Source: an uncultured Pseudomonadota bacterium
GTDB taxonomy: Bacteria; UBA10199; 2-02-FULL-50-16; JAJFLM01
Direction: 5' to 3'
NCBI GenBank assembly: GCA_964645365.1
Contig: CAZXZM010000001.1
Span: forward strand, 8,677 to 39,342
Length of the DNA: 30,666 nucleotides
Below, one piece after another: positions 3,555 through 30,600 of the stretch (its first letter is position 1; each line of letters begins with the position of its first letter). Under the pieces are notes generated by a model. The model worked only from the letters and a program-made list of their open reading frames with translations. It was not told where the DNA came from and ran no database searches. The translations under genes were made by a program, and so were the position numbers.

Positions 3555-3671
3555 ATGGACCGGATTGGATTCAAAATACCCCTTTTTTTTCTCCTCCTCG
3601 TAGGGTTTGTCGTCCTGACCGGTCAGGAAAAATTCTCCGGCGGTGGCGGGTGTAGCTGCGGCGGCAAGAAG
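3555..3671 (+). other. N-terminal signal peptide followed by GGGGCSCGGKK motif
   Basis: Basic n-region (R3, K7), hydrophobic h-region (I8-L21), then TGQEKFS-GGGG-C33-S-C35-GGKK. Confidence 0.7.
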
Positions 3672-6600
3672 TCGGAAGAGGGAGAGATCGTCGGGCCCCC
3701 CACTGGCCCTGGAGCGGAGACCCCCTGCAAATTTGATAGCAACTGCAGCACCGGACAGATCTGTTCTGCTATTGGCAAGTGCACCGTACCGGCAGAATGT
3801 AGCCTTGATGTCGATTGTCCCGAGGCAAGTCAGATCTGTTCCAAGGGATCTTGCATCGAGAGTGGTGGGAGTTGTTCCGCCGACTCTGACTGTCCGGTCA
3901 ATCAAAGCTGCTCCGAGGAGAGCTGCGTTGGTGGGGGAACCAGCTGTTCTATCGCCGCTGATTGTCCCGATGGGCAGGCCTGCCGCGAAGAAATCTGCAG
4001 TGTCATTGGGGAGATTCCCTGCTCCCTCCATTCCGAATGCCCGCAAGGAGTTTATTGTTCGCTAGGAGAGTGCGCCCCCGGCCTCGATACCTGCACCACT
4101 TCGGAGGAATGCCAGGCGGGAACGATCTGCCTGAATGAAACCTGCGTCCCGACCGGCGGTGGATGCGATGAGCATAGCAATTGCGCGCTCGGTTCCTATT
4201 GTGAATCGGGAGACTGTGTTCCAGCCGGCCTCCCCTGCACCGCCCCCAATCAATGTCCGACTGAAACAACCTGCATCAATGGGGGATGTATCGAAGGGGG
4301 GGAAAGTTGTGACGAACATACCGACTGTCCCGAAGGGCAGAGCTGTCAAGACGGGACCTGTGCCATCGGTGCAGAAGATTGCACGATCGATGAAGAATGC
4401 GGCGTCGGCAATGAATGCATCAATGGTGTCTGTGTCACCGGTGAAGTCCCGCCGCTCGAAGATAATCAACCACCTCAATTTTTAAACCCCGGTAACAAAT
4501 CGGTCGTTGCCGAAGAGTCTTTGAGCTTTACATTGGAAGCGACTGATCCCGACAGCGATCCATTGCAGTTTGCAATGACCGGCCTGGAGGGAACCGGGGC
4601 CAATCTCGATGACGAAAATGGGGAATTTTCCTGGACACCAGCTATCGGTCAGGCCGGCAATATCTTCAATGTAATCTTTATCGTCAGTGATGGGACCGAA
4701 AGTGTCGAACAAATCATCACGATTGAAGTGCTCCCCCTCCTCCCGGTTGGCGAAGGGGTCGAAGGGGCCCTCATCGGTTATGCGGTCAATCCTGGTACAT
4801 GCGGTCTCTGGAATGAATTTTTTGAAGACGTTGGTGAAGGGGCCTACACGGGCCTCCTCTATGACCTCACCCAACCCTGTACCGGTACCGTCAATACCTT
4901 TCTCGTCGATGGACCGACAACCAATGCAACCAATAACCTTTCGGTTATTTTGCTGCCGGCCGCCACACTCCCGGAAATTCGCGGGATCGTCCAAGGGGAT
5001 CAAGATGTCGATGATACCCCCCGCGTTTATCAAGGAAGTCCCTCCCTGCAACTCTATGCCCAGGTGACCAATGCCCAAGGGCAACCTGTCGGGGCCAATA
5101 CACCGGTCGCCGTCGATCTGTTGATTGCGGATATCTCCAAGGCTTCGGCTGCTGGGATCTATCAAGCCGGGGGGATCTTCCGAGCGAACCTGGCGGTTCC
5201 CCCGGCTGAATTTCAAGGCGGTGCCGATGTCGACGCCGAGGTGCGAATCGCGGCCGCCGGTCAAGTCATCACCACCCCGGTCCGCCTGAAGGCGCTCCCC
5301 CCTCCCCTTGTCTTGGGAGAGGGACAGGCTGGACTCGTCCTCCCGCAACAACGTTTCTTCGAAGGGCAAGAACTGACCGTGTCCATTCAGACCAATACTT
5401 TTCAGGCGAGTACTCCCCAAACGGTCGCCGGTTTTCAATTTACAGTACGATATGATGCCGACACCCTCGATTTTGTCGGGGTTGAAAAAGGCTTTCACGG
5501 CACCCGCTTCAACGATATCCAACACGTCACAAACGATATCGGTGGTGGCGAAAAGACCGTCACCTTTAATAGTATCCTCAATCAACAGGCCTCGACCGGG
5601 GCCCCGCCGGTTTCGGCGCCGGATGACCCCACCACACCAGCCGATGAACGTCTGATCGAACTCGCCACCCTCACCTTCCGGGCCAAGGTCGATGCCGACA
5701 CAACCGCTTCCTTTTCCGGTGTTAAAAACGAACTCCTAAAAGTGGCGGAAGGGGATACGGCATTAGGGGAACAAGGGGAAGAACTGATCATCGCCGACCA
5801 CGCCGGAGTTGACGACGGTTTGGATCCGACCGGTGAAGTCCAGCTCCTGCAGAAGGAATGGCGTGGCTTATTGAGTTGGCCCACAAATAATGTCCTGATC
5901 GATCGTTCCTGGGCCAATGCGGGCCTGAAGGCAACCGGACAGATTCAGGTGCGGGGGGTCCGTAACGATTCTTCCGGACTGATCGATGCAACCGGCGACG
6001 CGATTTTCGGCCCGGCCGTTCCCGACTTTATTCAATGGACCGCAGCTCCTGGATCCTTTGAAGCGAGTGCCACCGGTACTCAGGATATCACCGTAAACCA
6101 TGAGGGATTTTCCAATGACCTGCAGGTTCGCGTCTTTTACGCCGATCCCGCCGATATCTTTGCCGACACCGATCATGAAACCTTCGACACGACACTGAAC
6201 AAAATTGCAGGCACCGACGAATATCAAAATACCCAATTGCGGATTGTCTGGACCCCTTCCGGATTGCTCACTCCTGATGGGGAACCCTTAGAGATTAATC
6301 TTACTCCTCACCTCACCTTTTCTGAAAATGGAAGTGTCAGCTATGATGAAGCAACCGGGCTTGTCTCTGCGATTGCGCCGGGTGCCGGGAGTATCGAAGT
6401 GCAGGGAGCGGGGGGAAGCCTCCCCGATATCCCCTTTACCGTCTCCGACGACGAGGCCGCACTCGATCACCTGCAGGTGGCGACCGCGGCCAATCTCTTT
6501 TTACAGATCGGTAGCAATGGGAGCCCCCTTGACGATCCAATCCCGGTTCCCGCCACCGTTGGGACGACACAGGCCTCCCAGATCCATTCCTTTGTCACCA

Positions 6601-9600
6601 ATCAGTTCGAGTCGCTCGATCAAGAGGCCCCGATTACGGTCTGGGCCCATTTCACCGATGGGAAAAAATCTCTTTTTACCAATCGAGTCGATCTAACGAG
6701 TGACGACACGAATACCGTTGTGGTCGACGGAACCCGTTCGGTCGCTACGGGACATGGTTCCACCTTTGTCAATGCCAATCACCCCGCGACGGGGCAGACT
6801 GCGAAAGGGAGGATCGGCGTCACTCTCCCTGAAATTGATTCACTCACGATCACGACCGATCATCCACGGATTGCACGAAACGACAACGATCCTTCAGCGC
6901 TGCTACTGGGACTCCCCATCGAGACGCAGGCCCATGCCACCGTTAATTTTCAGGGGGGTGGAACCTGGGAGGCAACGACCGATGATCGCGCCACCTTCGA
7001 GGTGATCGAAAATAGCACACTCGCTTCGATCAATAATGATGGGGACATCACATCACTCAACGCCGGCGGCGGTCGTGTCAAGATCCGCGCCACGCTGCAA
7101 GATATTCCGAATCCTGGAGAAATCCTCACCGCAACCAAGACCTTTTGGGTGATGACCTTAAAGGATCTTGAGATCCGTACCTGCGAAGACTTTACTTATC
7201 CCACCGACGCCAATCAATTTACGCCAGCGATTGGCGGAAGTAGTTGCGTTGTCGACAGCACCTCGACCTACATTGAAGGAACGAATGATCGTCAGTGGAT
7301 GCGCCCAAGCATTGAGGGGATCTGGAGTGACGACACCCGTATTGATCTCCTCAATTTAGACCATGCTGACAATCTGCTCGAACACAATCTGGAATCAGCA
7401 GAAGCAAGCGGCCATTTTGACCTCCTCCATCCAGAGATGGGGCTGTGGCAGATCGCTCCTCATACCATTACGCCCGATGAAGGCTTTGCCCTGACTGCAG
7501 AGTATCCCCTCATCCCGGGACCGGACGTCGATATCTCCCATACCATTCACATTAACAACGATCGCGTCGAGATCACCCAACTCTATTTGCGCGGTACCGA
7601 TGGCATCTCCGGAGGAATGACCGATAGCGATGTCACCTTCAACGATACCTTTTCCGGTATCAAAGAGAGTGGCGTTACAAACTTGCGCGTTGTCGCCCAG
7701 ATGTCCGACGGCACACGGCGCCTAGTCGCCAGTGAAGGGGCCCAAAATACCACCACGGGGGGACCCTTGCTCTCCCTGGCACTGAACAACCAAGACCTTC
7801 CCCATCAGCCGGCCAGCGCCCCCAGCGATTATGCCAGCCTTGAAGATCCGATCGGCGGGGCGCTCATGATTCGTGGCAACGGCGGTGTCACCCTCACCGC
7901 CGATCTTTCGAATGATTCTGGAGATGACTATCCGGGGCAAGACTATGTGGTGGCGGCCAACCTGACACCGGCGACCGGCGATATGGACCTCGGAAGTGCG
8001 ACCGGTCGTTTTGTAAAGGTACTCGGTGATGAAGAGACGATCACTGTCCCGGTGCGCCTGAGTACCGGCGCTGAAAACCTTGCCGGCTTTCAGGTCAAGA
8101 TCCGCTACAACGCTGCTGTACTGTCGGCGCAGATTGCCGACATTGTGCCAGGCCCGCTCGCCGGTGAGGCACTGATCAGTAACGTCAATACTTACGCCCT
8201 TACTTCACTGGAGGCGGACGGCGACCCCAACCGCACCGGTGAAATCGTCTTGGTCGGAACCTTTTCACCGGGTCAAGAACCGACCGGCATCTCCGAAGTA
8301 GCCCGGGTCCGCCTTACCGCGCACAAGGGGGACACCCTCTATACCCAGATCACCGGAACGATCCATGCCCTGGTCAATCCGGCGCAAAATACGATCGGAC
8401 CCGTCATTCCAGACGGTGGACGGGTGATGATTGCCGGCTCCGGTTTTGTCGATCCGGGAGTGCTCGGTGACTGTAACGGCGATGGTTCCTTTAGCGTTGC
8501 CGACGTCGTCCACCTGCAACAAATGCTATTATCTTCCCCGGCCTTTAGTGTCGAATGTAATTACACCCAAACAGATTCCCACCTAAATCTCGAGGATGCC
8601 TTCCGTGGCATGCAGATCCTGGCGGGGCTGTTTCATTTTGTCACCACAACTGTCACCGATCTCGGCAATGGCATCTATAAGGTCGATGTCCTACTGCAAG
8701 ATGCCGCCGGCAACCCGGTCACCGACAGCCCGCACCACCAGGTGCGGCTCACGATCGGCTCGATCGAAAACCCGGCCATCAACGGAACCTATCTTGCCAC
8801 GCACGAAGCGAACGGTCATTATACATTTACGTTGCCGGCGTTGACTTATAATGGACAACTTTCGGTCGCGGTCCGCCTGGCGATCTTGGATGATCAAGAT
8901 CCCCCGCATGAAAAAAATGCGGTTCAATTGGGGACACAAAACTTTGCGGCAATCGGATCGGGCGACACCGATAATCCTTGTGATACGGTTACCTGTCCGG
9001 TGGGACTCGCCTGCGACCCCGATAATCTAAACTGTGTCGATCTGTGCGACGGGATCTCTTGCCCGACAGAGGGAGAGGTATGCGATCCGGCCAGTGGGAA
9101 TTGTGTCGACGATGTGATCGATCACTGCGCCGGTGTCTCGTGCGACCCCGACCTCACTTGCAATCCGGCCAGTGGTGAATGTCAGGGGGGGTGTACCGAT
9201 GATAGTGACTGCCCCGCCGGACAGGCCTGCCACAGCACACTTCTTCAATGTGAAAATGACTCCGATGGCGACGGCGACCCCGACTCGGAAGATGAAGATG
9301 ATGACGGAGATGGCATCCCGGATGATGAAGACCCCTGCCCCACCGACCCACTCAATCTCTGCGTCGAAGGACCGACCGACTGTGTTGACGATAGCGATTG
9401 CCCGGTCGACTTTGTCTGCAACGACATCGAACATGTCTGCGAGCCTTCGGCGCTTGTCAACGAAGCCCCCTTCTTTCCGGTGAGCCCAACCGACAAAGAG
9501 GTAATCGGTGGCAACACGTTGACCTTTACGATCGAGGCAATCGATCCGGAGGGGGAAGAGCTCCTCTACTTCATGGATACTTCAAATGATATCGATTGCA

Positions 9601-12600
9601 TTGGACTCGGGTTAGAGATTCCAGTCGAGGTTTTCGATGAAACGACTGGTGAATTTTCCTGGGAGACGACCGTTGCCGACATCTGTGACCACACCGTGAC
9701 CTTCATCGCCTCCGATGGCATCAATGAAACAGAAGCAACGGTTGAGATCCGGGTCCTCCCCGATCCCGGCGACATCATCGACCCGCTCGATCTGGTCCGC
9801 GGGGCTCGGGTCGATTTTGAATCGAATCCGGGGCTCTGGACCGGCGATTGGTGGCGGGAAGAGATCGGCAATGACAATGGTTACTACGATGGTCATCTGA
9901 TCCGGTTGGCAAAACCGGGAAATGGCTCCATCACCGCCCGTCTCACTGGCGGCGATCCGGAACCAAATCAATCGCAAAATATCGCGATCGCCGGAGAACC
10001 GGCGCGTGCATTTTTGATTACCAACCGGAATGAGGTCTTTGCGGAAGACGCGCAGGTGGGAGCCTTTGCCTTTGTTACCGATAGCCAAGGGCGACCCATA
10101 GCGAATACCACGGTCACTTTTACGGTGGGAGCCAATTCTTTTGCAGCCAATCCCGTTCCTACTGAAACCGGAATCTATTACCGCTCTCTGACCCTCACCG
10201 GAACCAGCAGCATTACCTTGCAAGTTGCCGGGGTTGCCGAACAACCGTCACAAGATATCACATTTGTTCCCAATGCCACTCCTTTAAATCTTCCGGACGA
10301 GCGAGTGGGGATCCCCCTGCCACAGCGAAAACTCTACGAGAATGAAAGCTTTACCGTTCCGGTTTTGGTCAATACCGGCACCAAAAATCTGGTTGCCTTC
10401 CGGATCGCCCTCAATATTGGAACTGATTTTGAAGTCACCGCAATTGTGAAGGGAGCGGGAATCGACAGCGATGCCACCACCTTTGGAGCCTTGAGTACTA
10501 TTCCAACAACACTGCCAACCGATAATTCGATCACCTTCGGTTCTGCCTTAAGTCAAGGGGTGGCACCGCAAGGGACGGTTGAAGTCGCACGAGTCACCTT
10601 CCGTGCTAAAAGTGCGATTGCCAACCTTCCCAAGACAATCACCTTCACCGGCACCGCCCTCGAGTTGAAAGGGCAGACAACGAGTGGCGCGGAAGATATC
10701 CTGGCGGGGAATGGTCAACCGGTGCTGTTTGCCGACCATACCGGAACGACCGATGCCAGTGGCGCGCTCCGTGTCGAACCAAACGCAGCGGAAGGGATCT
10801 TTGCCTATGCCTCGGAGCCCTATGTCTTGAATGCCACCCCGCTTCTCGCCTCCCCCGATGGAACGGGGAACGTCATTACAAAAGTAATCCACCGTCTCAG
10901 CGCCAATGCGGTCGAAACGCTCCCGGCCGCCAATGCGGACAGTTACGCCAGTAGCGATGACGGTGTCGTTACGATCGATGACAATGGGAATTATCAGGGA
11001 GTCGCAACCGGCGAAGCCAATCTTGAGATCAGCTATCAAAGCTTTGATTTTGACGAGATCGGTGTCGTTTCTTCAGTCATCTCCAATGATGAAATTGCCG
11101 TCGAGGCAAGCGACCTGATCCTCAATCTAATTACCGGAACCGATCCCCCCACTTATCAAACCGGTCAGGTCCATACCTATTGGGAAGTTCCGGACCGACA
11201 GCAGGCCAATGGCACACCGGTCCAAATCGATCTGACCGAATCGGCCTCCCTTTCTTACCTCTCCGATGGCTGCGTGACGCTTGATGCTGCCATCACCGGT
11301 CTCGTGAAAAACAATGTCGCCGTGGCAGCGGCTGACTGTGGAACGGTTACCGTTTCAAATGGTGCTGATGACCTCGCCACCCTCAATTTTTCGATCAGCG
11401 ACGAGACCAAAACACCGGAAGCTTTTATTACCGTCCCCGCCTGGGTTGGGATCCACGACGCCCCCGATGTCCCTGTTTTAGCAAGTAGCGAGCTAAATTA
11501 CAGTACGCAAACAACGACCGCGCGCGTCACCGATGTCTTTACCGAATACGAACAAGAGATCCCCCTCAGGGTCTCGCTGGAATTTGCCGATGATGGGGAT
11601 GTCCGGATGGAGGTGACCGAGGAGGCAACCGCTTTTTCAAGTGATGATGAAGCGATTGCCACCGTCGACGGAGCGACGAAGCAGGCCACCGGGCTTGCCT
11701 CAGGCATCACGACACTCCGCGCTTCTTATAATGATATCGAGGCGATCGGTCGTATCAAGGGGGACATCCCAATCCCCGACGTCAACATCAATGGTTGTGT
11801 CAACATCGCTCGAACGGCAGAGGATCCGGCGGCACTTCTCAAGGGGCTCGCAACGGAAAGCACGATTACCGTCACCCTTCCCAATGGGGATAACATCACC
11901 GATCAGCTCTCTTTTACGGTCAGTGCTGGCGCCGATGTCATTGAGGTCTTTGATGACAACAGCTACCGCAGCCTGGAAACGACCGGCGGCCCCTTCACGA
12001 TCACGATCGAAACCGACGGCTTTCTAGGGATCCCCAATCAGACCTGCACTGCCTTTGTGATGACGATTACCGACCTAGCGGCAGAAGCGACCGAAGATTA
12101 TGATTCCGGTAATTTTAATAACCGCGTTCCGGATAGTTACTACTCGCTGATCGAAGGAACTGCCCATCACCAACGGGGACGCTTGCTGATCGAGGCTACT
12201 TGGTCGGATGAGAGCACCAGCTTGATCGGACCGGATGAAGAGGCGCTCTTAAATTCGGTCGCCGGGGGTGATAATTTTAATTTCAGTGGTGACGATCATG
12301 TCGATCGCCTCCCCGTCGCTACCGCAGCGGCCGGCAGTTGGCCGACCGGTTACTGGCAACTGGTCCCGACCGCAGCACCCCACACCGACATCGTTACCGT
12401 GACCTTAGACGATATCGTTGCCGCTCCAATCACAACACAAAAGACGATTGCGACCGCTAATGACCGGACCAATGTCACCGATCTGATTATTCGTGGCTCC
12501 GCACCCACTATCTTAAACCATGTCCCCCGCTTTGAGACCTTTGATGCCACAATGGCCTTAGTTGCAGGGAACTCGAGTGATCTCAATGTCGATGCCCTCT

Positions 12601-15600
12601 TTGGTGGAGACCGGACCGATGCTACTGATGCCGCCGTCACCGGCAATCCCCGCTACCGGTTGGCAACGGAAGGGTCACAGACGATCGCTGATTTCTTAGT
12701 CACCAATGTCGTCGAAGAAAAATTCACCGGCCAACCCGATGCCCCCGATCTCCCCGCAACGGTGGAGGGGAATGGAACGGTCATCGCCACCCGGAATGGA
12801 GTCGACGTCGTCACCTGGACCTTAGATCCCGATCAAGATGCAACCTTGTCAAAAGAATATCGAGCCGCCGTTAATCTTAAACCGGGGGGCAAAGATGTCG
12901 ACCTCGGCGCGGAAACAGGGCGCTTCGTCAAAGTCTTCTCAAATGGTCAGACGATGTCACTGACCCTCAGCGCCAATACCGATGGGGAAGATCTTACCGG
13001 CTACGAAGTTCACCTCTTCTTTAATCCGGCGGTCCTGACGGTCGATCCTGATAGTCTGGCCAATGCCCCCGATGGAACCAGTGGGGTCAGCCTGATCGAT
13101 CATCCAACAGATACAAACCCTGATCTGCAACGCGAACTGATCCTGGCAGGAACAATCAATCTTCCCTATCCCAGCGGAACCGTCAATCTCGGGACACTCG
13201 ATTTTGTCGCCGACGGTGACAAGGACCATGCGATCACCCTCTTTACCGGTACCTCAAAACTGCCAACCGAAGAAGAACCGGGTGCAACGGCCAATCCACT
13301 GGTAGCCGCCTCCGGTTGGGTCGATCCGGCGCCATTCAAAAATTACTGCGCCGATGCAGCACTCTATGACATCAACGACGTCTCCTGTCTGCAGATCGAT
13401 GTCTTAAACGATGGCGCCAACGACGCTCTCGGTGACTACAACGCCAATGCCTTGGCAAATATGTACGATGTCTTCTTAGGGCTACAGATCGTTCTCAGAA
13501 AAAACCATTTCACCTCACTCGAACAACCGGCCCCGAATCAACTAGAAGTCCGCGTCGTCAACAACCAAGACGACCCGGTCACTACCGGCAGCGAGGTGAC
13601 ACTCACGATTGTCGACAATCAAACACCGGCCAATACCGTCACCTTCAATGATGGTTCCAATTCGGTTAGCGGTACTACGGTTGAAGATGCTGGCACGGGG
13701 TTATTTACCGCCCAGCTCAATCCGCTCCAACATAATGATATGGTCACCTTTAATGTTGGGCTGACAACGACGCTCGCCTCCGGAACCTATACCTTTTCTT
13801 ACGACCAACCCCTGGCGATCACCGGAACCGACGGCGATCTCACCTGCACTCTAGATGGCGGCGAGTGTGGTGAAGATCAACTCTGCGTCGATACCAATGC
13901 CGATGGAGTGGTCGATTCTTGTCATGGGGGGGATTCCTGCACCAGTGATCTTGAATGCACAAACGGCCAGATCTGCACCGACGGGACCTGTCAGGGAGGA
14001 GAGGTTTGCACCACCAATTCCGACTGCAGTGACAATCAGGTCTGTAGTGCCGGAAGCTGCACCGGTGGCAACGACTGCAGCGATGATGGCGACTGCTCTA
14101 CTGGACAACAGTGTGTCAACGAAACCTGTCAAGGGGGTGGCATTTGTACAACGGATGGTGACTGCGCCGGCGGTTCGGTCTGTGATCCCCTGCAGGGCCT
14201 GTGTCTCTTCCCCGACGGTGAGTGCGATAGCAATGAAGATTGTGTCGGGGATCAGGTCTGCGATCCCGCAACCAACGCCTGTAGCGATCCAGGGGGATCG
14301 TGCATTGCCGATATCTACTGTCCGGTTCCAGGCGAGATCTGTCTTGGCGGGACCTGCCAAGGGGGCGGGGGTTGCACCAACGATTCTGAGTGTCCCCTCG
14401 CCGAACAGAGCTGTGTCGACGGCACCTGTGAGGGGGGAGAAACCTGCGAGGAAGCGGCCGACTGTGGCGATCAACTCACCTGTTCCGCAGCAGGCACCTG
14501 TGTCCCGGATGAAGATAACGACGATGTCCCCGATGAGATCGATAATTGTCCGGGCCTTGCTAACCCAGGACAAGAAGATGGGGATGACGATGGGGTGGGC
14601 GATGCCTGTGACACCGACAATAGCTGTACGACCGATGAAGAGTGTCCCGCCGATCAGATCTGTAACACCGCTGCCGATAATCCCGAATGTGTGATCGGTC
14701 CCGATGGGGATGGGGATGGTGTCACCGATACCAAAGATAACTGCTCCGATGATTCAAACGCCGACCAGGCGGATGACGATCTCGACGGGATCGGCAATGA
14801 ATGCGACGATGAAATCTCCGGTGAACCGGTCTGGGGGGCGAAGCTGTCTGCACTCACCCAAAAGGTCCGGGCAGCGACCGGCGTTGACACGGTCGGCGAA
14901 TGGAAGGGTCACTTCGACGACCATCACTTCACAATAGGACCAGCAGAAGACGGAAACTACTCCAGTGAGCTCTTGAATTTGACCCCGGCGGGACAGGGGA
15001 AGACGCGCACTTCTGTTGAAGAGGGGCCACAGTCGAGCTTCCAAGGCTACGCGATCGCCCCGGCCCAGAGTGAACTGCAGCAAAAGACGACACGCGGCAC
15101 GGTCGCGGAAAACCTACCGGATACACTCTATAAGGCACAACGGCTGACCGCCGATCGACAGCCAGTAGCCACAGGACAAAGCCATAACTTTAGCCCGGGC
15201 AATGCCGCAGCCAATCCAGCAAGCGACACGACTGATGACAACGGCTTTGTGGAAAGTCTGCTCACCATTGCCGACGCCCAGTTCACCGGCCCTGCCGATG
15301 GGAATGCGGCAATCGGCACTGAAACGATTACCGCACGTGCCCGGCCGGCGGTCGCCGACTGTGGTGGAGATATCTGCATCTGGCTGGAGACCTCCTTCAT
15401 TCCGATCTTCCCGAATGGAAACCTTACCGTACCGATCGTACTGAACGCCGGGGCCGAAACGATCGACAACTTCGATGTCCAGATCGACTTCAACACGACT
15501 GATCTCGAATTTGTCGGGATCGAGAGCAGCCTCCCCAATTTTGTGAGCAACCCGAACCCGAATATTGATGGTTACTCCCGCTTTACCGCCTTTGACATTG

Positions 15601-18600: not shown

Positions 18601-21600
18601 CCGACAACGCCGATGGCAATATCGATGCCACCGCGGCACGCGTCACCTATCAAATTTCGGGAACCCCCTACACGGGGAACGAACTTGCCACTTTCTCAAG
18701 CAATGTTTTCGAAAAAATACTGACCGATCTCGACACAGCAGGAGACCTCGAGGTCATTGTTCAAGTGGAAGGATTGAGTGCTGGTGGCGATGTCCTCTGG
18801 AGCCATCACTATATGGGGACGCAACCGGTCCGGACCATTGCGATCAATCCGGGCGATCTCGATCCAGACGAAGATGAAGATGGGGATGGCGTCGATAATG
18901 GCACCGACAACTGTCCGTTTACTTTTAATCCAGGACAAGAAGATGGAAATGGCAATGACATCGGCGATGCGTGCGATGATTGTGCTCCAACACCTGATGG
19001 TGACGGGGATGGTGTCGGGGATGCGTGCGATAACTGTGCGGACATTCCGAATCTCGATCAGATCGATGAAGACCACGACGCGATCGGGAACGCCTGCGAC
19101 AACTGTCTTTCGATCTCCAACAACGATCAAGCAAACAGTAATGGCAACTTAATCGGCGATGCCTGCGAAGGCTTGGATCAGGATGACGACGGAGATGGAA
19201 TTCCGAATGGGGAAGACAACTGTCTGGATGTCGCCAATCCGGATCAGGACGATGGCGATGAAGATGGTATTGGTGATCTTTGTGAGTCGTGCACGCAAAC
19301 GAGTGAATGTGCGACTGGTCTCGTCTGTGTCGCCGGCACCTGCACCGACGAAGGGGGGAGCTGCACCCCCGAAACGGTCGACACCGACTGTGCCCCCGAT
19401 CAAATTTGTATCGACGGGGCCTGTGACGGCGGTGGGGCCTGTGACGATACGAGTGACTGTCCGCTCGGCGATCAGGTCTGTCATGAAGGGACCTGCGTCT
19501 CGCTCTGTCCCAATGGAACCCCGGCAATCGATGGTGAGTGCGAACCCTCAGAAACCGGGGCCCCCTCTTTTGTCGGGCTGACGAATGAGACGACACGTAT
19601 TGCTGGAGAAACGGTCGACATTACATTTACAGTCGAAGATCCCGACGGTCCCGATGAAACACTGGTTGAAATGAGTTCGGTCGAAGGGACCCCCGATCAT
19701 TCGACTTTCGCTACGATTCCGGATTTAGCAACACACACAACCGAGGGGCATCTGGTCTGGACAACCGTCCTCGAAGATATCGGTGACTATCATCTCACCT
19801 TTACGGCTACCGATGACGATGGTCACGAAACCCTCGCCACCTTGACGATCCATGTCATTGAAAATCCGGCCCTCGGGGGGCTACCGGTGGTCGGTGCCAA
19901 GGTGAGTTTTGATTCCGATCCCTCGACAATGGCCCGCTGGGAGGAACGGTGGTGGGATCAAGAAACCGCTGCAGACGGTCAATACATCGGTCCCTTTGGT
20001 GGTCTCTTCCAGACCGGCTCCTTTGACCTGTTGGGACAAATCGATGGAAGCCTCTTCCAGGCTGACAGCGCCGAAGTCCTACGCGATCAACGTGAAGTGA
20101 CGATCAACGAGACACCAACCAATGGTTTCTTGATTGCGGCAACACCGGAGGTCTTTCAGGAAGAAGCCGATGGCAGTGGTGAAGCGCAAATCTTCGCCTT
20201 CTTAACCGATGCACTTGGGCGTCCGTATGACGATGAGGATTTCACCGTCACGGTAACAGGAGCGGGGGGTGCGAATGCCACCCTCACCCACCTCGATACC
20301 GAAGAAGGGGTCTATGGAGGGAGCATCACTCTTCCCGCTGGGCAGTTCCCGAACGACGACTACGAATTAACACTGACCGCGCCGGTCTTAGCCGGTCCGC
20401 CAGCGACGTTACTCGATCTGGTGACCTACAGTGCTCCACCGAACATTCCAGATGAGTTCCTGCGTGCCGAACTGCCGCAAGGTAAATTTGCCCCCAATGA
20501 AATCTTTGACGTACCGGTCTATGTTAATGCCGGTGGTTCGAACCTGGCGAGCTTTACCCTAACCGTTAATTTCGATGATCGCCTCGAACTCATTGATAAT
20601 AGCGGTTTCAAAGTCACCGCCGGTCCCGGCATCGATCCGATCAACAACGGCACCTTAACGATCAATCCTGATTCGGTCACCTTCACCGGAACGATCGGTG
20701 CCACTGCAGCTCCCATCACCGGCCTTCACGCCCTAGTCACGACCCTCCATTTCCGTGTCAAGAGCGATGCCGTCTTGCCGAGCGATGTGGTCACCACCTT
20801 TATGAGTGGAACAATCGCTAGCGCCCAGGCGAAGGTCGGCTCCGGTTTTGAGGACCTCGATTCCAACGGGGAGGATCTCCTCCTGTCTGATCACACCGGC
20901 ACGAGTGATGCCGATGGAGACCTGCGCTTGATCCCCGATGCGATGCAGGGTTTCTTTGCCTACGCGTCGCTTCCGGTCCTGATGCACGATGTCGCACCGG
21001 GTAACGATCCCTTAGCGACCGAATCGGGTTCTCTGATCACACGCGTTGTCTACCACTCCAGCAGCGATGAGTTGGGAGAGATTCCAGTAGGGGCTACCGT
21101 TGTCTATCATTCAGGCGATAGCGGTATTGTGGCATTTGAGGATGCCAGTGAACGTTTTTATCACGCCGTATCGACCGACACGACGACGATCGATGTCACG
21201 ATCGATGGAGAAACATCAGCGCCAACAACGGTCCGGGCAATCGCACCAGCCATTGAAGATTTTCATATTGAACTGGGAGATACGACCTTAAGCAAGATCA
21301 GCGGCGGCGATGATTTTCAGACCACACAAGGCCATCTGGTCTGGACCGTCCCGGGAGTCACCCGACCGGACGGCACCACCCCCTTGACCTTTGACTTAAG
21401 TGCGAAGATCAAACAATGGAACCTCACGGAGGCCACCGTAGGCGTTGTTACCGTCGTTGACGATGATGGAATGGTCACTGTCGATCCGACGAGTGAATCG
21501 GGGAGTGTCACCCTGCAGGCAATCGGCGAAGGCCCCACGAGTGAGGCTGGTGACGATGAAATCATCACTGAACGAACGATCGCCATCGATGCCGACACTC

Positions 21601-24600
21601 CAGTGGCGGTCTCCGATCTGATCATCGCCGTCCCCGCCTCCGTCCTGATGACCGAGGATCCAACCCTCCATGCCGATCTCCAAAATATGGGGACTGCCAC
21701 GGCAATGATCTATGCCACCAACGCCTTCACCAAATATGGACGTGAGGCTCCGATCACTTACTGGGCGCTGTTTGGTGAAACAGTTGATCACGATGACGAC
21801 CCCGCGACGGCACCGATCGAGGTCCGGATGCCGCTAACGGGAGATGATCTCGATGCAGACTTAGCCATTGACGAAGTGAGCGGCCAACAACTCTTTGATG
21901 AAACATTCATCAGCGACAATAACAATAACAAACTGAAAGTGACCGCCGCCTGCCCGACCGGCGAGGAGGCTACCTGTGATACGAATGTCAACGCGACCTA
22001 CCGCGGTACAACTTATTCGACCCCACTCTATGTCGCGATCATCGCCCCCGATGTCGATATCATCGGCGACACCCTCCTCGCCCGTTCGGCGGACGACTTA
22101 AGTGCCACACTCTATAACCCACCGCTGCCGGTCAGTACCCAACTCGAAATTCAGAATCATGAAACGGAACAAGATATCACCAGTCACTTCAGTTTTTCGA
22201 TCGCGCCGGAACAGCAAAACATTGCCACGACGACACCGGAAGGCTTGGTGACGGCCGATGCAGCCGGCCCCGGCGGTGAAGTGACCGTCACAATCCACAA
22301 TGAAGATGGTTTCTTAGGGATTCTCGATCAGACTTACGTCATCCAGGTTATTACCTTAGAATCACTCACGCCCGAGGTTTACGAAGACTACGATCCGGCG
22401 ACACGCCCCGGCTACAATCCGGCCACCGGTGAAAAATTTGCGAGTGCCCACTCCGAAACTGTCCTGCAACTCGTCGAACAAGGAGGCGATAAATGGCAGC
22501 AGGCCCGCCTCTGCTTAAAGGGAACCTGGAACAACGGCGTTACTTTTTATCTTGACGATGCTGCGGTGGTTCTCAATGAAGTCTCCGGAGAAGGACTGAG
22601 TGGTGACCTGGAAATTGAGATTCCAGGGGTCTTTTCACTGGAAGCAACCGACGCAAATCCCGATTCGAATTGGCCCGGCTGTTGGCGTGTCACGACCGAT
22701 TCGGCGACTGCCGATCCCTTTACAGTATCGCTCACCGGTGATTCGGTCGCGGAAGACTTTAACGATATTGCGATCACACTCACCGCCGATGCTACCGATG
22801 GCAACCACGTTCAGGTGGATGACCTTGAGATCCGCGGCCGCGGTGGAATCAATAACCAAACGGTCGACATCGCCTCCGACACCGGAATGCTTTCTGCCGA
22901 TGCAACCTTTAAGGCGACCGTTGATTCAACCGCCAATCTCTGGATCAAATCAACCTTCAGCGACAATGCCCGCTTTGTCTTAGTCGATGATAATGATCAG
23001 GTCTTTGACGGTTTTGTCCTCTTTAATGACTTTGCCGAGATCCCACTCCCGAACCCGGCTCCCGCGGCAGCCCCCTCGGCAACGATCAGTGTCGATGGCC
23101 AATTGAGAATCGATGCCAACGGGGCGGTTGGAATGACAGTTGCACTCGCCGCAGATTTAGCTCCGGCCTACAGTCGTCCTCATCGAATCGCCAATAATCT
23201 GCTCCCTACAAATGACGGCGATGTCGATATCGGTCCGACAACCGGTCGCTTTATGCCGGTCTTAGGGGGTGCCCCGATCCCGATCCGGATCAATGTCGGT
23301 GCCGGTTCCTTTGATACGACAACGATTGAAATTGATTATGACCCGCGGGTCTTGCTCTTCAATACCGCAAGCTACACTCCGGCTGCGAATATTGCCTGGA
23401 TTCCAAAAAATGAGCCGACCAGCGTAGAGACGATGACAACGGCAACAGATGCTCCCTGCCCTGCAGACCCGAGTGATCCCTGCGAAGCGACCTTTACGTT
23501 GACCGCCTGGTCTACCGCCGCTTCCGCTCCGACTGGCACGATCACACTTGGAACAATTCAGGTAATCGGCCGCAAATTCCCAGGCCACACCGTCACCGAA
23601 CTGACCGGTAACGCCACCACATCGCTGGCCGATGCCACCGAAGTCACCAAAGATCCAATCGTTGCTGGAACTGGTTGGGTCGATCCCCCCGGACTGAAAG
23701 ACTATGCTAATGCTGACGGTCTCCATACTCCCGGTGACGTCACGCAGCTCTTGATCGACATTAATAATCCAGCCATTGGCGGAACTGGGGTCAGTGATCT
23801 TCCCGACGGACATGGGGGATGGCTCGGTGATTACGATGACAGTGGAACGGCCAATGCCTCCGATGTTCTGCTGGGGCGTCAGATCCTATCGAGTTGGTTC
23901 TATTTCCACGATATCACGACGACCGGCGGCGACGGGAACTACACCCTGAATATCCAGTTGCTCAATAAAAACAATGTAGCGATCACCACGGGAACAACGG
24001 TCACAGTCGATGTCACGAATATGAATCCGCTCAATACGGTTCTCTTCGACGGAGCGGCCTCAGCCACAATGACCCCCGATGATCCATTTACGATCCCGAT
24101 GACGGTCACCTACAACGACAGCATCACCCTCCGCTTTGAGCTGGCGGTCGATGTCGGTGGTAGCACCGGAACAAATTCCACTTATGTCTATCGCACGCTG
24201 AGCTTTGATGGTTCTTCCGGCAATCCCCCCTTATGTCCCGAGGACAAAGAGTATTGCGCCGATTTCGATCAATGCTGCGACAGCGGCTGTGGCGATGCCG
24301 GTAGTTGTGTCGATGTCATCTGCCCAGCCGGACAACAACTGGTGGGCGATGGTTGTGTCCCGATCCCCTGTGCTGGTAACGACGACTGCCCCTACAATGC
24401 CACCTGCAGCAGCGGGGTCTGTATCGATGTCTGTGATGAATCGATCGCTCCTGCGTGTTCCGATGGCGAGAGCTGTCAACCGGGACCGGGTCATACCGGC
24501 ATCTGTGACGATCCCTGCTCTGGCGTCGTCTGTAGCGGTGATCTCACCTGTCAGGTTATCGATGAGGAACTGCAGTGTTGTGATGCCGACGGAGACAATT

Positions 24601-27600
24601 GCGAAGAGATCGTCTGTGGGATGGGACTGGTCGCACTCGATGACGATCAAGATGGAACGATCGATCAGTGCGGCACCTGTATCGAAGATACTGTTTATAA
24701 TGAGACGACCCATCAGTGCGAACCGTATGAACCGTGTGGTGTAAACGAGGTCTTTGTCGACGGTCTCTGTTGTGACGAAGCCATCCCCTTTGTGGTCGAC
24801 GGCCAGTGTTGTGACAGCGCCGATGGCCTTGGAGCTTGCGAAGGGAGCGAGTGCCCCGAAGGGCAAAGTTATAACGAAGATGCAGAGTCCTGCCAGTGTC
24901 CCGATGGCTCGACACCAGCGGAGGGTCCCTGCCCCCTCAATACCGATCCGGTCTTCATGCAACCGGCCCTGACAACCTATTCGGTCTTGCCGGATCAAGT
25001 GGTCAACTTTGTGGTCAACGCCTTTGATTCCGATGGAGATACGATCGTCTATTCGATGTCCGAAAACGATCCATTACTGATTCCAGACGAATCGTTTGAT
25101 CCGGACACCGGCATTTTCAACTGGACCGCGACCGACGCGGCGATCGGTAATCACACCCTTGAGTTTACCGCCCAGGACGTCAATCCCGACGGCGATCCGA
25201 TCGGTGACGGAACGATACGGACGGTCACGATTCAAGTCACCGACGGTACGGTGGCGGGTGAAGCGGTCTTTGGTGCCCACGTCGTCTTCACCACAGTCCG
25301 TGATGATGGATTTGCAAAAGGACGGTGGGACGGCATCTGGTGGGAAGACGACGGAACGCCTGACGGTCACTATACCGGGCACCTGCTCGACCTCGCCTTC
25401 CCCGGCACGGAAAGTATTGGAGCCCAGGCCCTGGAAGGGATAACGACCGAAACAAATGCACTCGACATTATCCTGAATAGCGACGCAACACGAGGACATC
25501 TCGTCTTGGCACGAAATGATGTCTATCCCGACGATTCGATGCTATCGGTCTATGCCCTCGTTACCGATGATTTTGGTCGCCCCTATCATGGAAATGCGGT
25601 GATTACTGTCGAAACGGCTGGACATGGCTCGGAGACACTCACCAAGGCTCCCGGAAAACCGGGAATCTACGAAGGTTTGTTAACGCTGAATGGCTTTGAT
25701 GCCGTCGATCAACCGATTACCGCCATACTAAAAGCGGGTGGCGTAACCCTCTTGAATACAGCTGGAGCAGCGGACGAAGAACAGGCACTGACACTGAAGG
25801 AAACGGTTGAAGACTTAAATCTGGTTGCTGGACACGCCGGTCTCCAGATTCCGAAACGCCCCTATTCCCCGAATGAAACCTTCGACGTTCCCCTTTACAT
25901 CGATACCAATGGGCTCGGCCTCTTCTCTTTCAGTATCGATGTCACCTTCGATAGTTCCCGGGTCGAGTTCACCGGCAACAAGATCACGTTGGTTGCCGGT
26001 TTTGATCCGATCAACCCGGCGACCCTCCATGCTGAAACCGATACAATTACACTGCTCTCCGGTTCCGCCTCGAATCAATTGGTCGGTGCCGGCAAGCAAC
26101 TCCTCGGCACACTCCACTTCAGAGTCAGAAATGGTGCCGCGATCGCACCGGTCAACTTTTCCGGCACCGCCACAGAGCTCTTTTACAGTGCGAGTGGAGC
26201 CCAGACCCCGCTCGCAGGTCATGGACAGGCACTGCAGCTTGCCGACGGGGGCGGAAACGGGAGCGGAGACTTGGCCTTGGTCGGTACCGAACTCCGCGGC
26301 ATTCTGGCCCATGCCAAAGACAGTCAATTGTTCGGTACTGTTCTCGGTGGACTGTCGCTTCCGAACGATCTGACCCAATCCTCAATCCAGCTCTATAAGG
26401 TTGAAAATAACGGCACCTTAAGCCTGGTGGCCGCTGGCTCCGCTACTTGCAATGACACGGCCGATAAGGTCAGTGACGCCTGTGTTAATTTCGCTGCCAC
26501 TACTGAAGGAATCGCCATCCTCGAAGTCGAATACAGTGAACATGGCGGAACCAAAACGATCGACAATCTCCAGGTGCAGGTCGACTGGATCGAGGGGAAC
26601 TCTATCGACGCGGGAGGGGATATTGAACTGGCCACCGATGACAGCGATGGGACAATTAAAAAGCTGGGCGGAACCGATAGCTATCCGAAGGTCCACACTC
26701 ATGCGATCTGGCATCGCGGCGATGGGGTCCGCCTTGATCTGACATCTCATACTACGCTGACCAGCACAGATAATGCGGTCTTCACTGTCAGCGATGGCAT
26801 CATTACGGTCCAAGGAACTGGCTCCGCCAATCTGGAAGGACTCGGCGCCAACCTCCCCTTAACGGTCGTCGATGAAATAGAAGATTTTAATATCGAAGTG
26901 GCTGTGCCCGCTCACGTCGCGATGGAGAGCGTCACTACACCGGTCAACCTCGCTGGAATCGATACCGACGGACGTGGCACTAGCGAGGTGATCGCCTCGG
27001 TCGTCAATACCTTCACCCATCTCGATGATGAGGCGCCAGTCACCGTCAGTGCCATTTCCGTCGACGGCAGCCGTTTTGATATCACTGATGAAGTGATTGC
27101 GGCCGAGGGCCTAAGTATCGGTGATGATAGTTTGGTCGATTTCAAGGCAGACGATTCCAATATCGTCATTCCGAAGACAACGGGCGAGCATACGACGACC
27201 GTCACGGCAGAATATGCCAGCAAACTTCCAGTGAGTTCGAATGTCCATCTCAACATCACCGCCCCACCGACGACATTGAATGGCTGTGAGCCAGTCGCGC
27301 GAAGCAATGATGATGCTTCAGCCAAGGTCTTGGGGCTCCCGATCTCCCGCGAACTCAGCGTCACTTATAATGGTGGGGCCGATACGATCCCGACAGGGAA
27401 CATTAACTTTGTCGTCACCTCGGGGTCTGAACTCGTTAAAACAACGGAGGTCGAAGGATCGCAACAACTTGAAGACAACAATATTGTCGAGGTCGAAGAC
27501 GATCTCGATACCGGCGGCATTGTTGTCATCGAACTCGAAGTCAACTACTTAGGTTTCCCGAATCAAGTCTGTACGCTTCCGGTCATGACCTTAACGGGAC

Positions 27601-30600
27601 TTTCGGCCTCGACCTATGAAGACTACGACCCGGCCGATCTTCCCCACTATACAGCTGCCGATGGAATCTTTGCCGCAACCGTCGCAGACAACACGATTTC
27701 AAAGATCGAGGGACAGGTAGCTGAATGGCAGCGAGTGCGTCTGGTGATCGAAGGGACCTGGACCGATGGAACGAGCACTTACTTAGGGCCGGTCCAGAGA
27801 GATCAGATCGGAGGCGATTTTGAGATCACACTTCCTGATGCCAATTACGGCCAAGGAGATGTCTTTGATGAAAACTCCGATGATGGAGCGTCTCCTTCCG
27901 GTTGGCCAGGCTCTTACCGATTGACCGCCACAGCAGGGGCGAGCTCAGGGGACATTACGGTTGGTGTCGCTGAACCTTCGGCCACTTCGACACTCGATCC
28001 GGCGACCCACGACATGACCTTTGAAAATAGCGCGACGACCTTTAATCCGGCCGGCACGATCGTCCGGGGTGAACATACCGGAATTGGTAACGGTCTCGAG
28101 GTAGGGATCGATAATGTTCAGGTTGGTGTCATCAATGGCGACGAGGATTTCGATGCGACCCTGATGGGCTTTGCCGGAACGGCTTACCCCTTGACTGTCG
28201 TCGGTCAGTTTACCGATGGAGAACGGATGATTGTGGCGAGCGAGACTAGTAATGTCACCGGCACAGACCTCGTCACCTTTGAGGTGGAAGAGCTCGAACC
28301 ACCGCAGATGGCGGCTGTTGACCTCCCCGCCTCGGTCGCGGTCGATGCCGACGGCAATATCACCCCGAGCGCCAATGGCGCGGTTCGAATCCCCATCAAG
28401 GTCGCCACCACCGAATCGGCCTTAAAAGAATATGATCTCATCTCCAATCTCCATCCAGTCGAAGAAGATCTGGATATCGGCCCGACTGCTGGTCGCTTTG
28501 TTCCGGTCTTGAGTGGAGGTGGGGCTCAACCGACCTTGGCCGTCCGGGTCAATACCGGTGCCGGTAACATCAGTATCTTTGAGTTTGCCTTGAACTACAA
28601 CCCGCAGGTGGTCACCTTTGATGTCGCGGGGATCTCCGGACCGACCGGCTTTACTGTCGAGGCGAATATCGATCCGCCGGATGCCCAGACCGCGGGGGGT
28701 ATCGATAGTGCCCAGTTACTGGTCAGCGGTTCCTATGTCGGTGCGGCCAAGAGTGGCATTGTCACGATTGCAACGATCCCAATCGCCAGTGCCCCCAAGG
28801 GTGGTGATGGTTACTTTGAACTGACCGGTTCGGCAACCACGGTCGTCGATAACGGGGGGCTGACAACGCTCTCAACACCAGAAGTCACCGCAGCAAAGGG
28901 ATGGGTCGATCCTGGCGGTATCAAGAACTATGCCGATGAATCGGGTGAAGGAACCTATGGTCCGTACGATATCGCCCGCCTGAAACAGGATATCATTGCA
29001 GGGATTCAGGCACCATTAGTCGATCAGTATTCCAACGCTCCCGCGACCGAACTGCTAGGTGACTACAATGGTGGGGGCATACAACCGGGCAATCCTGCCG
29101 ATGCCCCGAAAGCGGATTCCTTCGATACCGGTCTGGCGCTCCAAATCAACACCCTCAAATTTCACTTTACCTATCTGACACTGACACCGACCGGAGCAAC
29201 CGGACACTACCTCTTCCGTGCGCACCTCTTTGACAAAACGGGGACCGCGACCTGTGCCAATGGAATCGAATTTGATCATTACGATGTGGGGGTACCCGGA
29301 AATACGATCCTCTTTGACGATGCCATACCGGCCTGTACCGAAACGCTCGCCGAAAAGTATTATGAAGCCGAAGTGACCGTCGCTTACGACGCCACAATCG
29401 GCCTCAAGGCAACGGTGACCACAGAAACCGCAACCGGTTCGAATCCGATTGCCGTCCTCGGCCGTTTTACCGTCCAAGGGGAAGAGGGGGTCCTACCGGT
29501 TTGCCTCGAAGGAACCACTTACTGTGCCGCTTCGGATCAGTGCTGTGAAGGGGCGGATGAAGATATTTGTGGGGGAAGCTGTAGCGATCCGATCTGTCCG
29601 GTCGGCTATGAAATCGACCCGGCCACCGATATCTGTGTCCCGACAACTTGCGTCAATGACAATCAGTGCCCCTTCGATGCCCAATGCACCGACGGGTTCT
29701 GCACCGACGTCTGTGACGGGGTCACCTGCGGTGATGGTGAGTCCTGTTATCCGACCGGTAACCACAATTCTGACTGTGGCGATCCTTGTGAAGATGTGAT
29801 CTGTGCCGCCGACTTTGAATGTGAATTGGTTGGGGATCAGGCAGAGTGCTGCGATGAAGACAACAACTGTAATGAGATCGATAACTGCGAACCGGGAACC
29901 TTCTTGATCGATGATGATCACGACGGCCTCTTTGATCGCTGCGGCATCTGCTCGGAAGGAACTGAATACAATGTCGCCACGGGACAGTGTCTGCCGGAGG
30001 CTTGTGAACAAGCAGCCGATTGTGCCGGCAATGAGACCTGTGATCTTGTTTCCGGTGATTGTATCCCCTGCCCGCCGGGCCAGATCCGTGATCCGGCCAA
30101 CGACAATGCCTGTATTGCCTGTCCCGACGACAGTGATCCAGCCTGTTCACTCGCCTGTCCCGAAGGAACGAGCTGGAACAACAACATCAACGCCTGTGCG
30201 TCTGAGTGCGAAGCGAATGAGCCCTTGTTACTACCGGATGGTTCCTGTGCCAGCTGTCCTGCAGGACACATCTACGACCCAAGCGAAAATAAATGTAAGT
30301 ATATCTTCTGCGAAGAAGACGAAATCGATCCGGGTAACGAAACTCTCAATGAAGCGCTTGATCAAAACCAACTCGAATTGTCGGTCGATTACACCACGTT
30401 GGCCGCAAAACTAAATGCCTTTGAAAACCGCACAATCTTCTTTGTCGCCCCGAATGGCAGCGACACGATTCCGGGAGATCCAGGGGGAGGTGCCACCGAG
30501 GAAGAAGAGACCGCCTATGAAGAAGGTCTGCTCCGCGGCACAGTCGATAAGCCACTCGCCTCAGTCGCTAAGGCACTGGAACTGATCGAGGCCAAGGGGG

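Follow-up and report, generated by a model that had tools for sequence, protein, structure and literature searches.

Few protein-protein connectors are known to be as strong as cohesin-dockerin pairs, which have found wide use in biotechnology, while their role outside cellulosomes is still mostly unknown. That role is the question raised by the 30,666-nucleotide (nt) stretch of contig CAZXZM010000001.1 analysed here (hereafter the window), which contains one giant open reading frame (ORF) that encodes, according to a first interpretation made from the letters of the window (the sequence-only reading), about ten cohesin-like and five dockerin-like modules on a single chain between positions 5340 and 29150. 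Are these modules genuine cohesins and dockerins, and, if so, to what would they bind? As judged from profile searches and predicted structures, the modules are genuine cohesin and dockerin homologues. The reading that we favour, with a probability of roughly 0.5, is that the product is a giant extracellular, self-associating protein of the fibre or adhesin type, whose own dockerins dock into cohesins of the same protein species, with no recruitment of enzymes.

Organization of the giant open reading frame

The giant ORF extends over 9,037 residues without a stop codon, uninterrupted up to the 3' end of the window, and since this end coincides with the end of the contig, the gene is cut by the assembly and not by biology. 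Chunked self-BLAST resolved five super-repeats with pairwise identities of 25-37% and a period of 1,659-1,792 amino acids (aa); self-BLAST of the whole protein returned the identity match alone. Hidden Markov models (HMMs) built from the modules detected exactly ten cohesin-like and five dockerin-like modules in the ORF, the first beginning at nt 5298 and the last ending at nt 29171, so that both the number given by the sequence-only reading and, to within about 40 nt, its coordinates proved correct. The same applies to the order that it proposed for each unit (cohesin A, cohesin B and a dockerin directly after B), which was found in five of five units. The complete order is a Cys-rich/thrombospondin type 3 (TSP3) linker, He_PIG and Big_1-like immunoglobulin (Ig) domains, cohesin A, about six Big_2-like Ig domains, cohesin B-dockerin and an Ig/CBM56-like domain. 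The features of the ORF, with the evidence for each, are as follows.

3555..30665, + strand: giant ORF of more than 9,037 aa with five super-repeats of about 1,700 aa each; single open frame, open at its 3' end
4470..4730, + strand: He_PIG/cadherin-like Ig domain opening unit 1, preceded by Cys-rich DUF7107 repeats
5298..5900 (aa 582-782), + strand: cohesin A, unit 1; Pfam Cohesin 24.4 bits, AlphaFold pLDDT 93.2, Foldseek
5865..7964, + strand: run of Big_2-like Ig domains between cohesins A and B, unit 1 (present in five of five units)
7968..8447 (aa 1472-1631), + strand: cohesin B, unit 1; Pfam Cohesin 22.9 bits, model against 1ohz_A Z 13.4
8442..8645 (aa 1630-1697), + strand: dockerin, unit 1; Pfam Dockerin_1 13.6 bits, model against 2ccl_B Z 8.5
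8631..8954, + strand: Ig/CBM56-like beta-sandwich after the dockerin, unit 1; model against 5t7a_B Z 10.3 and 6a6c_A Z 9.9
10275..10835 (aa 2241-2427), + strand: cohesin A, unit 2; Pfam Cohesin 20.5 bits, module HMM
12882..13319 (aa 3110-3255), + strand: cohesin B, unit 2; module HMM, no individual Pfam match
13314..13514 (aa 3254-3320), + strand: dockerin, unit 2; module HMM, loop analysis
15339..15860 (aa 3929-4102), + strand: cohesin A, unit 3; Pfam Cohesin 18.5 bits, module HMM
17832..18326 (aa 4760-4924), + strand: cohesin B, unit 3; Pfam Cohesin 24.0 bits, module HMM
18324..18539 (aa 4924-4995), + strand: dockerin, unit 3; Pfam Dockerin_1 12.4 bits, module HMM
20430..20993 (aa 5626-5813), + strand: cohesin A, unit 4; Pfam Cohesin 23.6 bits, module HMM
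23211..23678 (aa 6553-6708), + strand: cohesin B, unit 4; module HMM
23673..23912 (aa 6707-6786), + strand: dockerin, unit 4; module HMM, loop analysis
25806..26342 (aa 7418-7596), + strand: cohesin A, unit 5; module HMM, no individual Pfam match
28455..28904 (aa 8301-8450), + strand: cohesin B, unit 5; Pfam Cohesin 14.2 bits, module HMM
28899..29171 (aa 8449-8539), + strand: dockerin, unit 5; module HMM, loop analysis

The cohesin to dockerin ratio is thus fixed at 2:1, with cohesin A and cohesin B spaced by 830-930 aa, of which the 650-700 aa that separate the two modules form the run of Big_2-like Ig domains. In every unit cohesin B passes with its last residues directly into the dockerin, and no linker intervenes. 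Successive units are separated by Cys-rich DUF7107 repeats and TSP3 Ca2+-binding repeats, and each begins with He_PIG/cadherin-like and Big_1/invasin-like Ig domains.

Two short motifs of cohesin B, G-D-x-D-(L/I)-G at its N-terminus (window 7980-8000) and G-(W/F)-V-D-P at its junction with the dockerin (window 8440-8460), occur in all units, are invariant or nearly so in 52 family sequences and are not present in cohesin A. Such motifs might supply an additional Ca2+ site or act as a clasp holding the dockerin against cohesin B.

Identity of the cohesin and dockerin modules

The Pfam Cohesin model (PF00963; gathering score 24.1 bits) matched the first half of the protein with 51 bits (E 2.3e-13). 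Of the ten single modules, seven scored 14-24 bits and three had no match, cohesin A of unit 1 (24.4 bits) being the only one to pass the threshold. Because Pfam was borderline on the giant protein alone, a family of homologues was collected, and these pass clearly, with 37-58 bits. A profile of the cohesin A family (44 sequences) retrieved almost exclusively cohesins from the PDB (best E 3.4e-9), including the non-cellulosomal cohesins of A. fulgidus and C. perfringens. Predicted structures agree with the profiles. The AlphaFold model of cohesin A of unit 1 reached a predicted local distance difference test score (pLDDT) of 93.2 and a predicted template modelling score (pTM) of 0.89, and its Foldseek PDB matches 1 to 43 are all cohesins; the model of the three consecutive domains cohesin B-dockerin-Ig of the same unit reached a pLDDT of 88.3 and a pTM of 0.69. 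When the cohesin B part was compared with the PDB (VIA-align), the top 15 matches were cohesins, with 1ohz_A superposed at Z 13.4 and a root-mean-square deviation (rmsd) of 2.3 A over 130 of 140 residues. By these matches both unit 1 cohesin models conform to the nine-stranded beta-sandwich (jelly-roll) fold of solved cohesins, and the best sequence and Foldseek matches are chains of adaptor scaffoldins (e.g. PDB 3l8q and 4fl4).

The Pfam Dockerin_1 model (PF00404) gave 13.6 bits for the dockerin of unit 1, 12.4 bits for that of unit 3 and no match for the other three, all five lying below the gathering score of 22.9 bits; consequently, of the two Pfam models by which the sequence-only reading proposed to recognise the modules, the cohesin model is passed by the first half of the protein and the dockerin model by none of the window dockerins. 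A profile of the dockerin family (50 sequences) matched only dockerins in the first 27 PDB entries retrieved (best E 1e-9, nearly full length), EF-hand proteins appearing from E 0.004 onward only, and 13 of the 50 family members match Pfam Dockerin_1 at E <0.01. Residues 171-229 of the three-domain model align with the type I dockerin 2ccl_B of C. thermocellum at Z 8.5 and an rmsd of 2.4 A over 58 of 62 residues (22% identity). The possibility that the modules are generic Ig or EF-hand folds, which would have contradicted the sequence-only reading, is ruled out by these profile and fold matches.

The domain that follows the dockerin, an equivalent of which is found after each of the five, has CBM56 beta-1,3-glucan-binding modules as its best structural matches. 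The likeness, seen in the model, hints at glycan binding, but may reflect merely a common fold.

State of the dockerin calcium loops

A dockerin is defined by two segments of about 22 residues, each comprising an F-hand Ca2+ loop (ligand positions 1, 3, 5, 9 and 12) and a helix. Two segments are present in the unit 1 model, with helices at residues 184-196 and 215-225, but the window dockerins each retain only about one canonical loop. The dockerin of unit 1 has kept a canonical loop 1 (D, N, D, S, D) next to a degenerate loop 2, and that of unit 2 has a canonical second loop, the first being lost. The dockerin of unit 3 has a near-canonical loop 1 (D, T, N, S, D) and a loop 2 with Trp at ligand position 3; that of unit 4 has a canonical loop 2; in unit 5, an insertion of 10 aa splits loop 2, and loop 1 is softened (D, S, E, G, D). 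The degeneration concerns the five copies of the window, whereas the family consensus is a textbook two-segment dockerin and many family members retain fully canonical two-loop dockerins. Few columns of the 52-sequence alignment of the cohesin B-dockerin-Ig dyad are invariant or nearly so; the position-12 Asp of each loop is one of them.

Search for separately encoded partners

The source assembly comprises 1.64 Mb in 193 contigs and is 80% complete. Within it, Pfam Cohesin and Dockerin_1 match the giant ORF only, and the same result was obtained when all ORFs of at least 60 aa were searched with the 5-sequence and 50-sequence family profiles at E values up to 10. In five relatives (92-100% complete) that carry orthologous genes encoding 9,600-12,800 aa, all matches of the dockerin profile lie inside giant ORFs. 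The sole dockerin outside a giant frame in the searched genomes is a borderline Pfam match in relative G031, encoded a few kb upstream of the 12,096-aa ortholog of that genome:

L015:3801-4730 (G031:C37), - strand: 309-aa secreted protein with one TSP3 repeat and a two-segment dockerin; Pfam borderline

This small protein is a possible cargo or cap for a free cohesin. Neither dockerin-bearing glycoside hydrolases nor other dockerin-bearing enzymes were found in the own assembly or in the five relatives, and Pfam matched no CBM3, SLH, sortase signal or glycoside hydrolase on the giant protein itself. The non-cellulosomal character attributed to the protein by the sequence-only reading is thereby upheld, while its suggestion that the chain might display dockerin-tagged enzymes or toxins encoded elsewhere finds nothing in the own assembly and, among the relatives, this one borderline dockerin. 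Since the 80%-complete own assembly and the relatives yielded no further dockerin or cohesin, bar that protein, enzyme display is not supported.

Proposed role and alternative explanations

The fibre character of the protein is indicated by its Ig-type domains and Ca2+-binding linkers, together with the beta-helix end of the ortholog of relative G017. In the proposed mechanism, export of the chain and its retention at the cell envelope are probably the task of the N-terminal hydrophobic segment, and from there the chain would extend as a long fibre of about 60 beta-sandwich domains, estimated at roughly 200-300 nm if extended. At the opposite end, a C-terminal beta-helix tip, as deduced from the complete ortholog, probably binds or cuts polysaccharide on a target surface. 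With Ca2+, the dockerins would engage cohesins that belong to the same protein species, self-cross-linking being plausible because all candidate partners reside on one chain. The C-terminus of a cohesin is located at a pole of the sandwich and not on its 8-3-6-5 face, the sheet by which cohesins bind dockerins, and, as the dockerin is attached without a linker, the adjacent cohesin B is probably not the socket; binding in cis to this module was considered and judged unlikely on these geometric grounds alone. The likely socket would be cohesin A of the same or of a neighbouring chain, and such docking would bundle, stiffen or cross-link fibres and not recruit enzymes. A more specific and doubtful version, which we put forward tentatively, is that a single polypeptide self-assembles in Ca2+-rich seawater through cohesin A-dockerin contacts, with a register of about 1,700 aa, into a cross-linked lattice or sheath, or into a zipped multi-strand fibre, around a small-genome bacterium.

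Several points weigh against self-association. With about one canonical Ca2+ loop each and scores below the Pfam cut-off, the window dockerins may have lost cohesin binding; the fusion of cohesin B with the dockerin and the pTM of 0.69 of the three-domain model would be just as compatible with a rigid structural joint; the mechanism includes a putative envelope anchoring and a putative function of the beta-helix tip; and the own genome is only 80% complete. Some of these points are shared by the main alternative, which we consider possible but less likely, that the modules are structural only, the cohesins being spacers and the dockerin a Ca2+-dependent rigid joint in the stalk of a long Ig-repeat adhesin with a beta-helix tip. 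Such a stalk would account for the degenerate dockerins (one intact loop each, one 10-aa insertion, Pfam scores of 12-14 bits or none), for the strongly conserved G-(W/F)-V-D-P motif at the linker-less cohesin B-dockerin junction and for the fairly fixed arrangement that the three-domain pTM suggests. Against it stand the free cohesin A, conserved throughout the family at a fixed distance from cohesin B-dockerin, the fully canonical two-loop dockerins of many family members and the Ca2+-loop Asp among the most conserved columns.

If the protein acted instead as a classical scaffoldin, its free cohesins, especially cohesin A, would recruit separately encoded dockerin proteins such as enzymes, toxins or adhesins. 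We consider this very unlikely, given that no other dockerin was detected in the 1.64 Mb assembly with Pfam or either family profile, that in the five relatives the dockerin-profile matches are all inside the giant ORF and that no dockerin-tagged enzyme accompanies it in any of these genomes, even though ten cohesins against five dockerins leave at least five spare sockets, G031 encodes its secreted 309-aa dockerin protein near the giant gene and the incompleteness of the own assembly leaves room for others. It is likewise improbable that the modules serve as a multivalent heterotypic adhesin, binding a foreign ligand (a host or prey surface protein or glycan) and not each other. The small genomes and the patchy distribution of the gene (8 of 92 species) do recall the giant adhesin-like genes of putative episymbionts or predators, and the post-dockerin domain resembles the beta-1,3-glucan-binding CBM56; a Z of 10 is, however, unspecific for a small beta-sandwich, and in every tested case known to us cohesins bind dockerins.

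Whichever explanation applies, a small (about 2 Mb) marine genome devotes more than 1% of its DNA to a single protein, on which all the cohesins and dockerins found in that genome are gathered. With only 5 x 10 candidate pairs, all on one chain, the role of non-cellulosomal modules is unusually clean to test here. If self-binding is true, the protein would be a natural self-assembling fibre or lattice and possibly a source of new orthogonal connector pairs, and self-assembly would make the cohesin-dockerin pair a building material and not an enzyme holder; if the modules do not bind each other, it would follow that dockerins can decay into structural joints.

Comparison with known systems

Giant Ig-repeat fibrillar adhesins (Big_2/BIg-repeat proteins of the SiiE, LapA and MpIBP type) combine a long Ig chain with Ca2+-binding elements and a distal ligand-binding region. 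The giant protein shares with them the long Ig chain, the Ca2+-binding elements and a putative distal ligand-binding region; cohesin-dockerin dyads or super-repeats of about 1,700 aa are not known to us from adhesins of this type. Adaptor scaffoldins of cellulosomes, such as ScaA/ScaB of A. cellulolyticus and ScaA/ScaB of R. flavefaciens, also carry several cohesins and a dockerin on one polypeptide. In these, a single C-terminal dockerin, often accompanied by an X-module, connects the chain to a further scaffoldin, and the cohesins take up glycoside hydrolases with dockerin tags, whereas the giant protein has a dockerin fused to a cohesin in each unit, lacks matches to CBM3, SLH and a sortase signal, and has no dockerin-tagged enzymes that could be found.

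Non-cellulosomal cohesins and dockerins are distributed across all domains of life, according to Peer et al. (2009) as cited in PMC10066038, PMC5244752 and PMC9012536. Like the structurally characterized modules of A. fulgidus (2xdh) and of C. perfringens NagJ/GH33 (2jh2, 2vo8), those of the giant protein are genuine folds that occur in an organism without a cellulose-degrading apparatus, and the cohesin B model matches 2xdh_A at Z 12.6 and 2vo8_A at Z 12.3. The known non-cellulosomal proteins are short and have one or a few modules, in contrast to the ten plus five modules carried here in a fixed super-repeat by a chain of more than 9,000 aa, the only such modules found in the genome. The scaffoldin-like proteins of ANME archaea, with one dockerin and up to five cohesins, for which cell-surface or cell-cell assemblies have been proposed (PMC9012536, PMC5244752), are similarly non-cellulosomal and unite cohesins and a dockerin on one protein; however, ANME genomes encode many separate dockerin-bearing partners, e.g. 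substrate-binding proteins, of which none was found for the giant protein.

A precedent for self-binding is provided by Amy4 of the R. bromii amylosome, whose cohesin was shown experimentally to bind its own dockerin, suggesting multimerisation (PMC4611034). As in the giant protein, cohesin and dockerin lie on one chain, but Amy4 is an amylase of 1,356 aa that has a single module of each kind and also binds other dockerin enzymes (PMC4611034), whereas the giant protein consists of repeats without a catalytic module and no other partners were found. Dockerin-type giant proteins with TSP3 repeats, proposed to function in attachment, have been described in Omnitrophota (West-Roberts et al., bioRxiv 10.1101/2023.11.21.568195; PMC10066038). 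These proteins too are of giant size, extracellular and encoded by uncultured bacteria with small genomes, and they unite dockerin, TSP3 and beta-sandwich modules; they belong to another phylum and family, are at least 30,000 aa long and have a C-terminal transmembrane segment, SecA-like parts and dockerin helices flanking CBM35-like barrels, while the giant protein has canonical cohesins paired with dockerins, a putative N-terminal anchor and a beta-helix end.

The giant protein is set apart from all these published systems by having all sockets and plugs on one chain of 9,000-13,000 aa, by its strictly conserved super-repeat and by the lack of any cargo found. A limited literature search yielded no description of the cohesin A ... 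cohesin B-dockerin giant family, in line with the statement of the sequence-only reading that the architecture could not be recognised; as regards its separate traits, non-cellulosomal, self-binding and giant dockerin-type proteins have all been published.

Terminal regions of the protein

Two further features mark the ends of the ORF.

3555..3674, + strand: hydrophobic signal/anchor segment followed by a Gly-rich GGGGCSC motif; conserved in orthologues
30402..30665, + strand (switch from about 30330): start of a C-terminal right-handed beta-helix (DUF1565-like), cut by the contig end

The arrangement of hydrophobic segment, polar spacer and GGGGC(S/T)C is also found in the complete G017 ortholog and in family members P0004, P0006 and P0007, and, being conserved in the family, looks like a functional signal for export, anchoring or lipidation and not like a chance feature; the GGGGCSC motif is not a canonical lipobox. 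At the other end, the final stretch of about 140 residues shows a weak but collinear alignment with the beginning of the last domain of the G017 ortholog (9,627 aa), in which the terminal 650 aa or so form a right-handed beta-helix followed by a stop codon, with no C-terminal anchor. This domain had no matches in the PDB by phmmer; it has weak DUF1565 and Beta_helix matches, and its language-model neighbours are all beta-helix families. A DUF1565 domain also follows the dyad of the single-unit family member P0007. About 600 aa of the beta-helix end are probably missing from the window gene.

Family, host and distribution

A profile of the cohesin B-dockerin-Ig dyad, built from the five dyads of the window, retrieved 304 metagenomic cluster representatives at E <=1e-3, 16 of them at <=1e-30, from 1.84 billion proteins. 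Many members of this family are 2,000-7,900 aa long with two to seven matched stretches, and the named ones are hypothetical or 'cohesin domain-containing' proteins of metagenome-assembled genomes (MAGs) labelled 'Deltaproteobacteria', 'Myxococcales' or unclassified 'bacterium'. Three near-complete relatives of the host have matching frames of 9,627, 12,096 and 12,813 aa, in which cohesin A alternates with cohesin B-dockerin at a period of 5.1-5.5 kb; the spacing between cohesin A and cohesin B-dockerin is the same in single-unit family members.

The closest named RpoB sequences (78% identity) derive from 'Deltaproteobacteria bacterium RIFCSP...' MAGs. The GTDB phylum of the host is small: its 93 species representatives all belong to one class, and their genomes measure 1.1-4.6 Mb. 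Of the 92 species other than the host, 8 are matched by the dyad profile, scattered across families. Sequence of the organism is present in marine, seawater and hydrothermal-vent metagenomes. The host is an uncultured marine bacterium of a small candidate phylum, with genomes of about 2-3 Mb and the NCBI label 'Deltaproteobacteria bacterium'.

Assembly integrity and gene neighbourhood

At the nucleotide level the giant gene has no long repeats, the only repeating elements being short TSP3-type motifs, and window positions 5000-24999 are tiled without indels by near-identical contigs from four metagenome runs (marine, seawater and hydrothermal-vent) of three studies. With no long nucleotide repeats and independent contigs tiling the region, an assembly artefact or collapsed repeat is ruled out. 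One contig of a hydrothermal-vent run connects position 14612 to 19007, omitting 4,394 nt between two TSP3-type linkers, and one side of this junction is backed by 24 letters only; a misjoin at a short repeat is the probable cause, although the run may instead contain a strain that lacks one unit. A search of the other contigs of the own assembly for the missing 3' end and for paralogues returned short TSP3-type matches only.

Two genes were delimited upstream of the giant gene.

784-1260, - strand: SprT-like gene
1283-3358, + strand: 691-aa protein with a spermidine-synthase domain

The flanks show no synteny with those of the G017 ortholog, where the spermidine-synthase-like and SprT-like genes are not syntenic. 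A Proton_antipo_M fragment is also located upstream of the giant gene.

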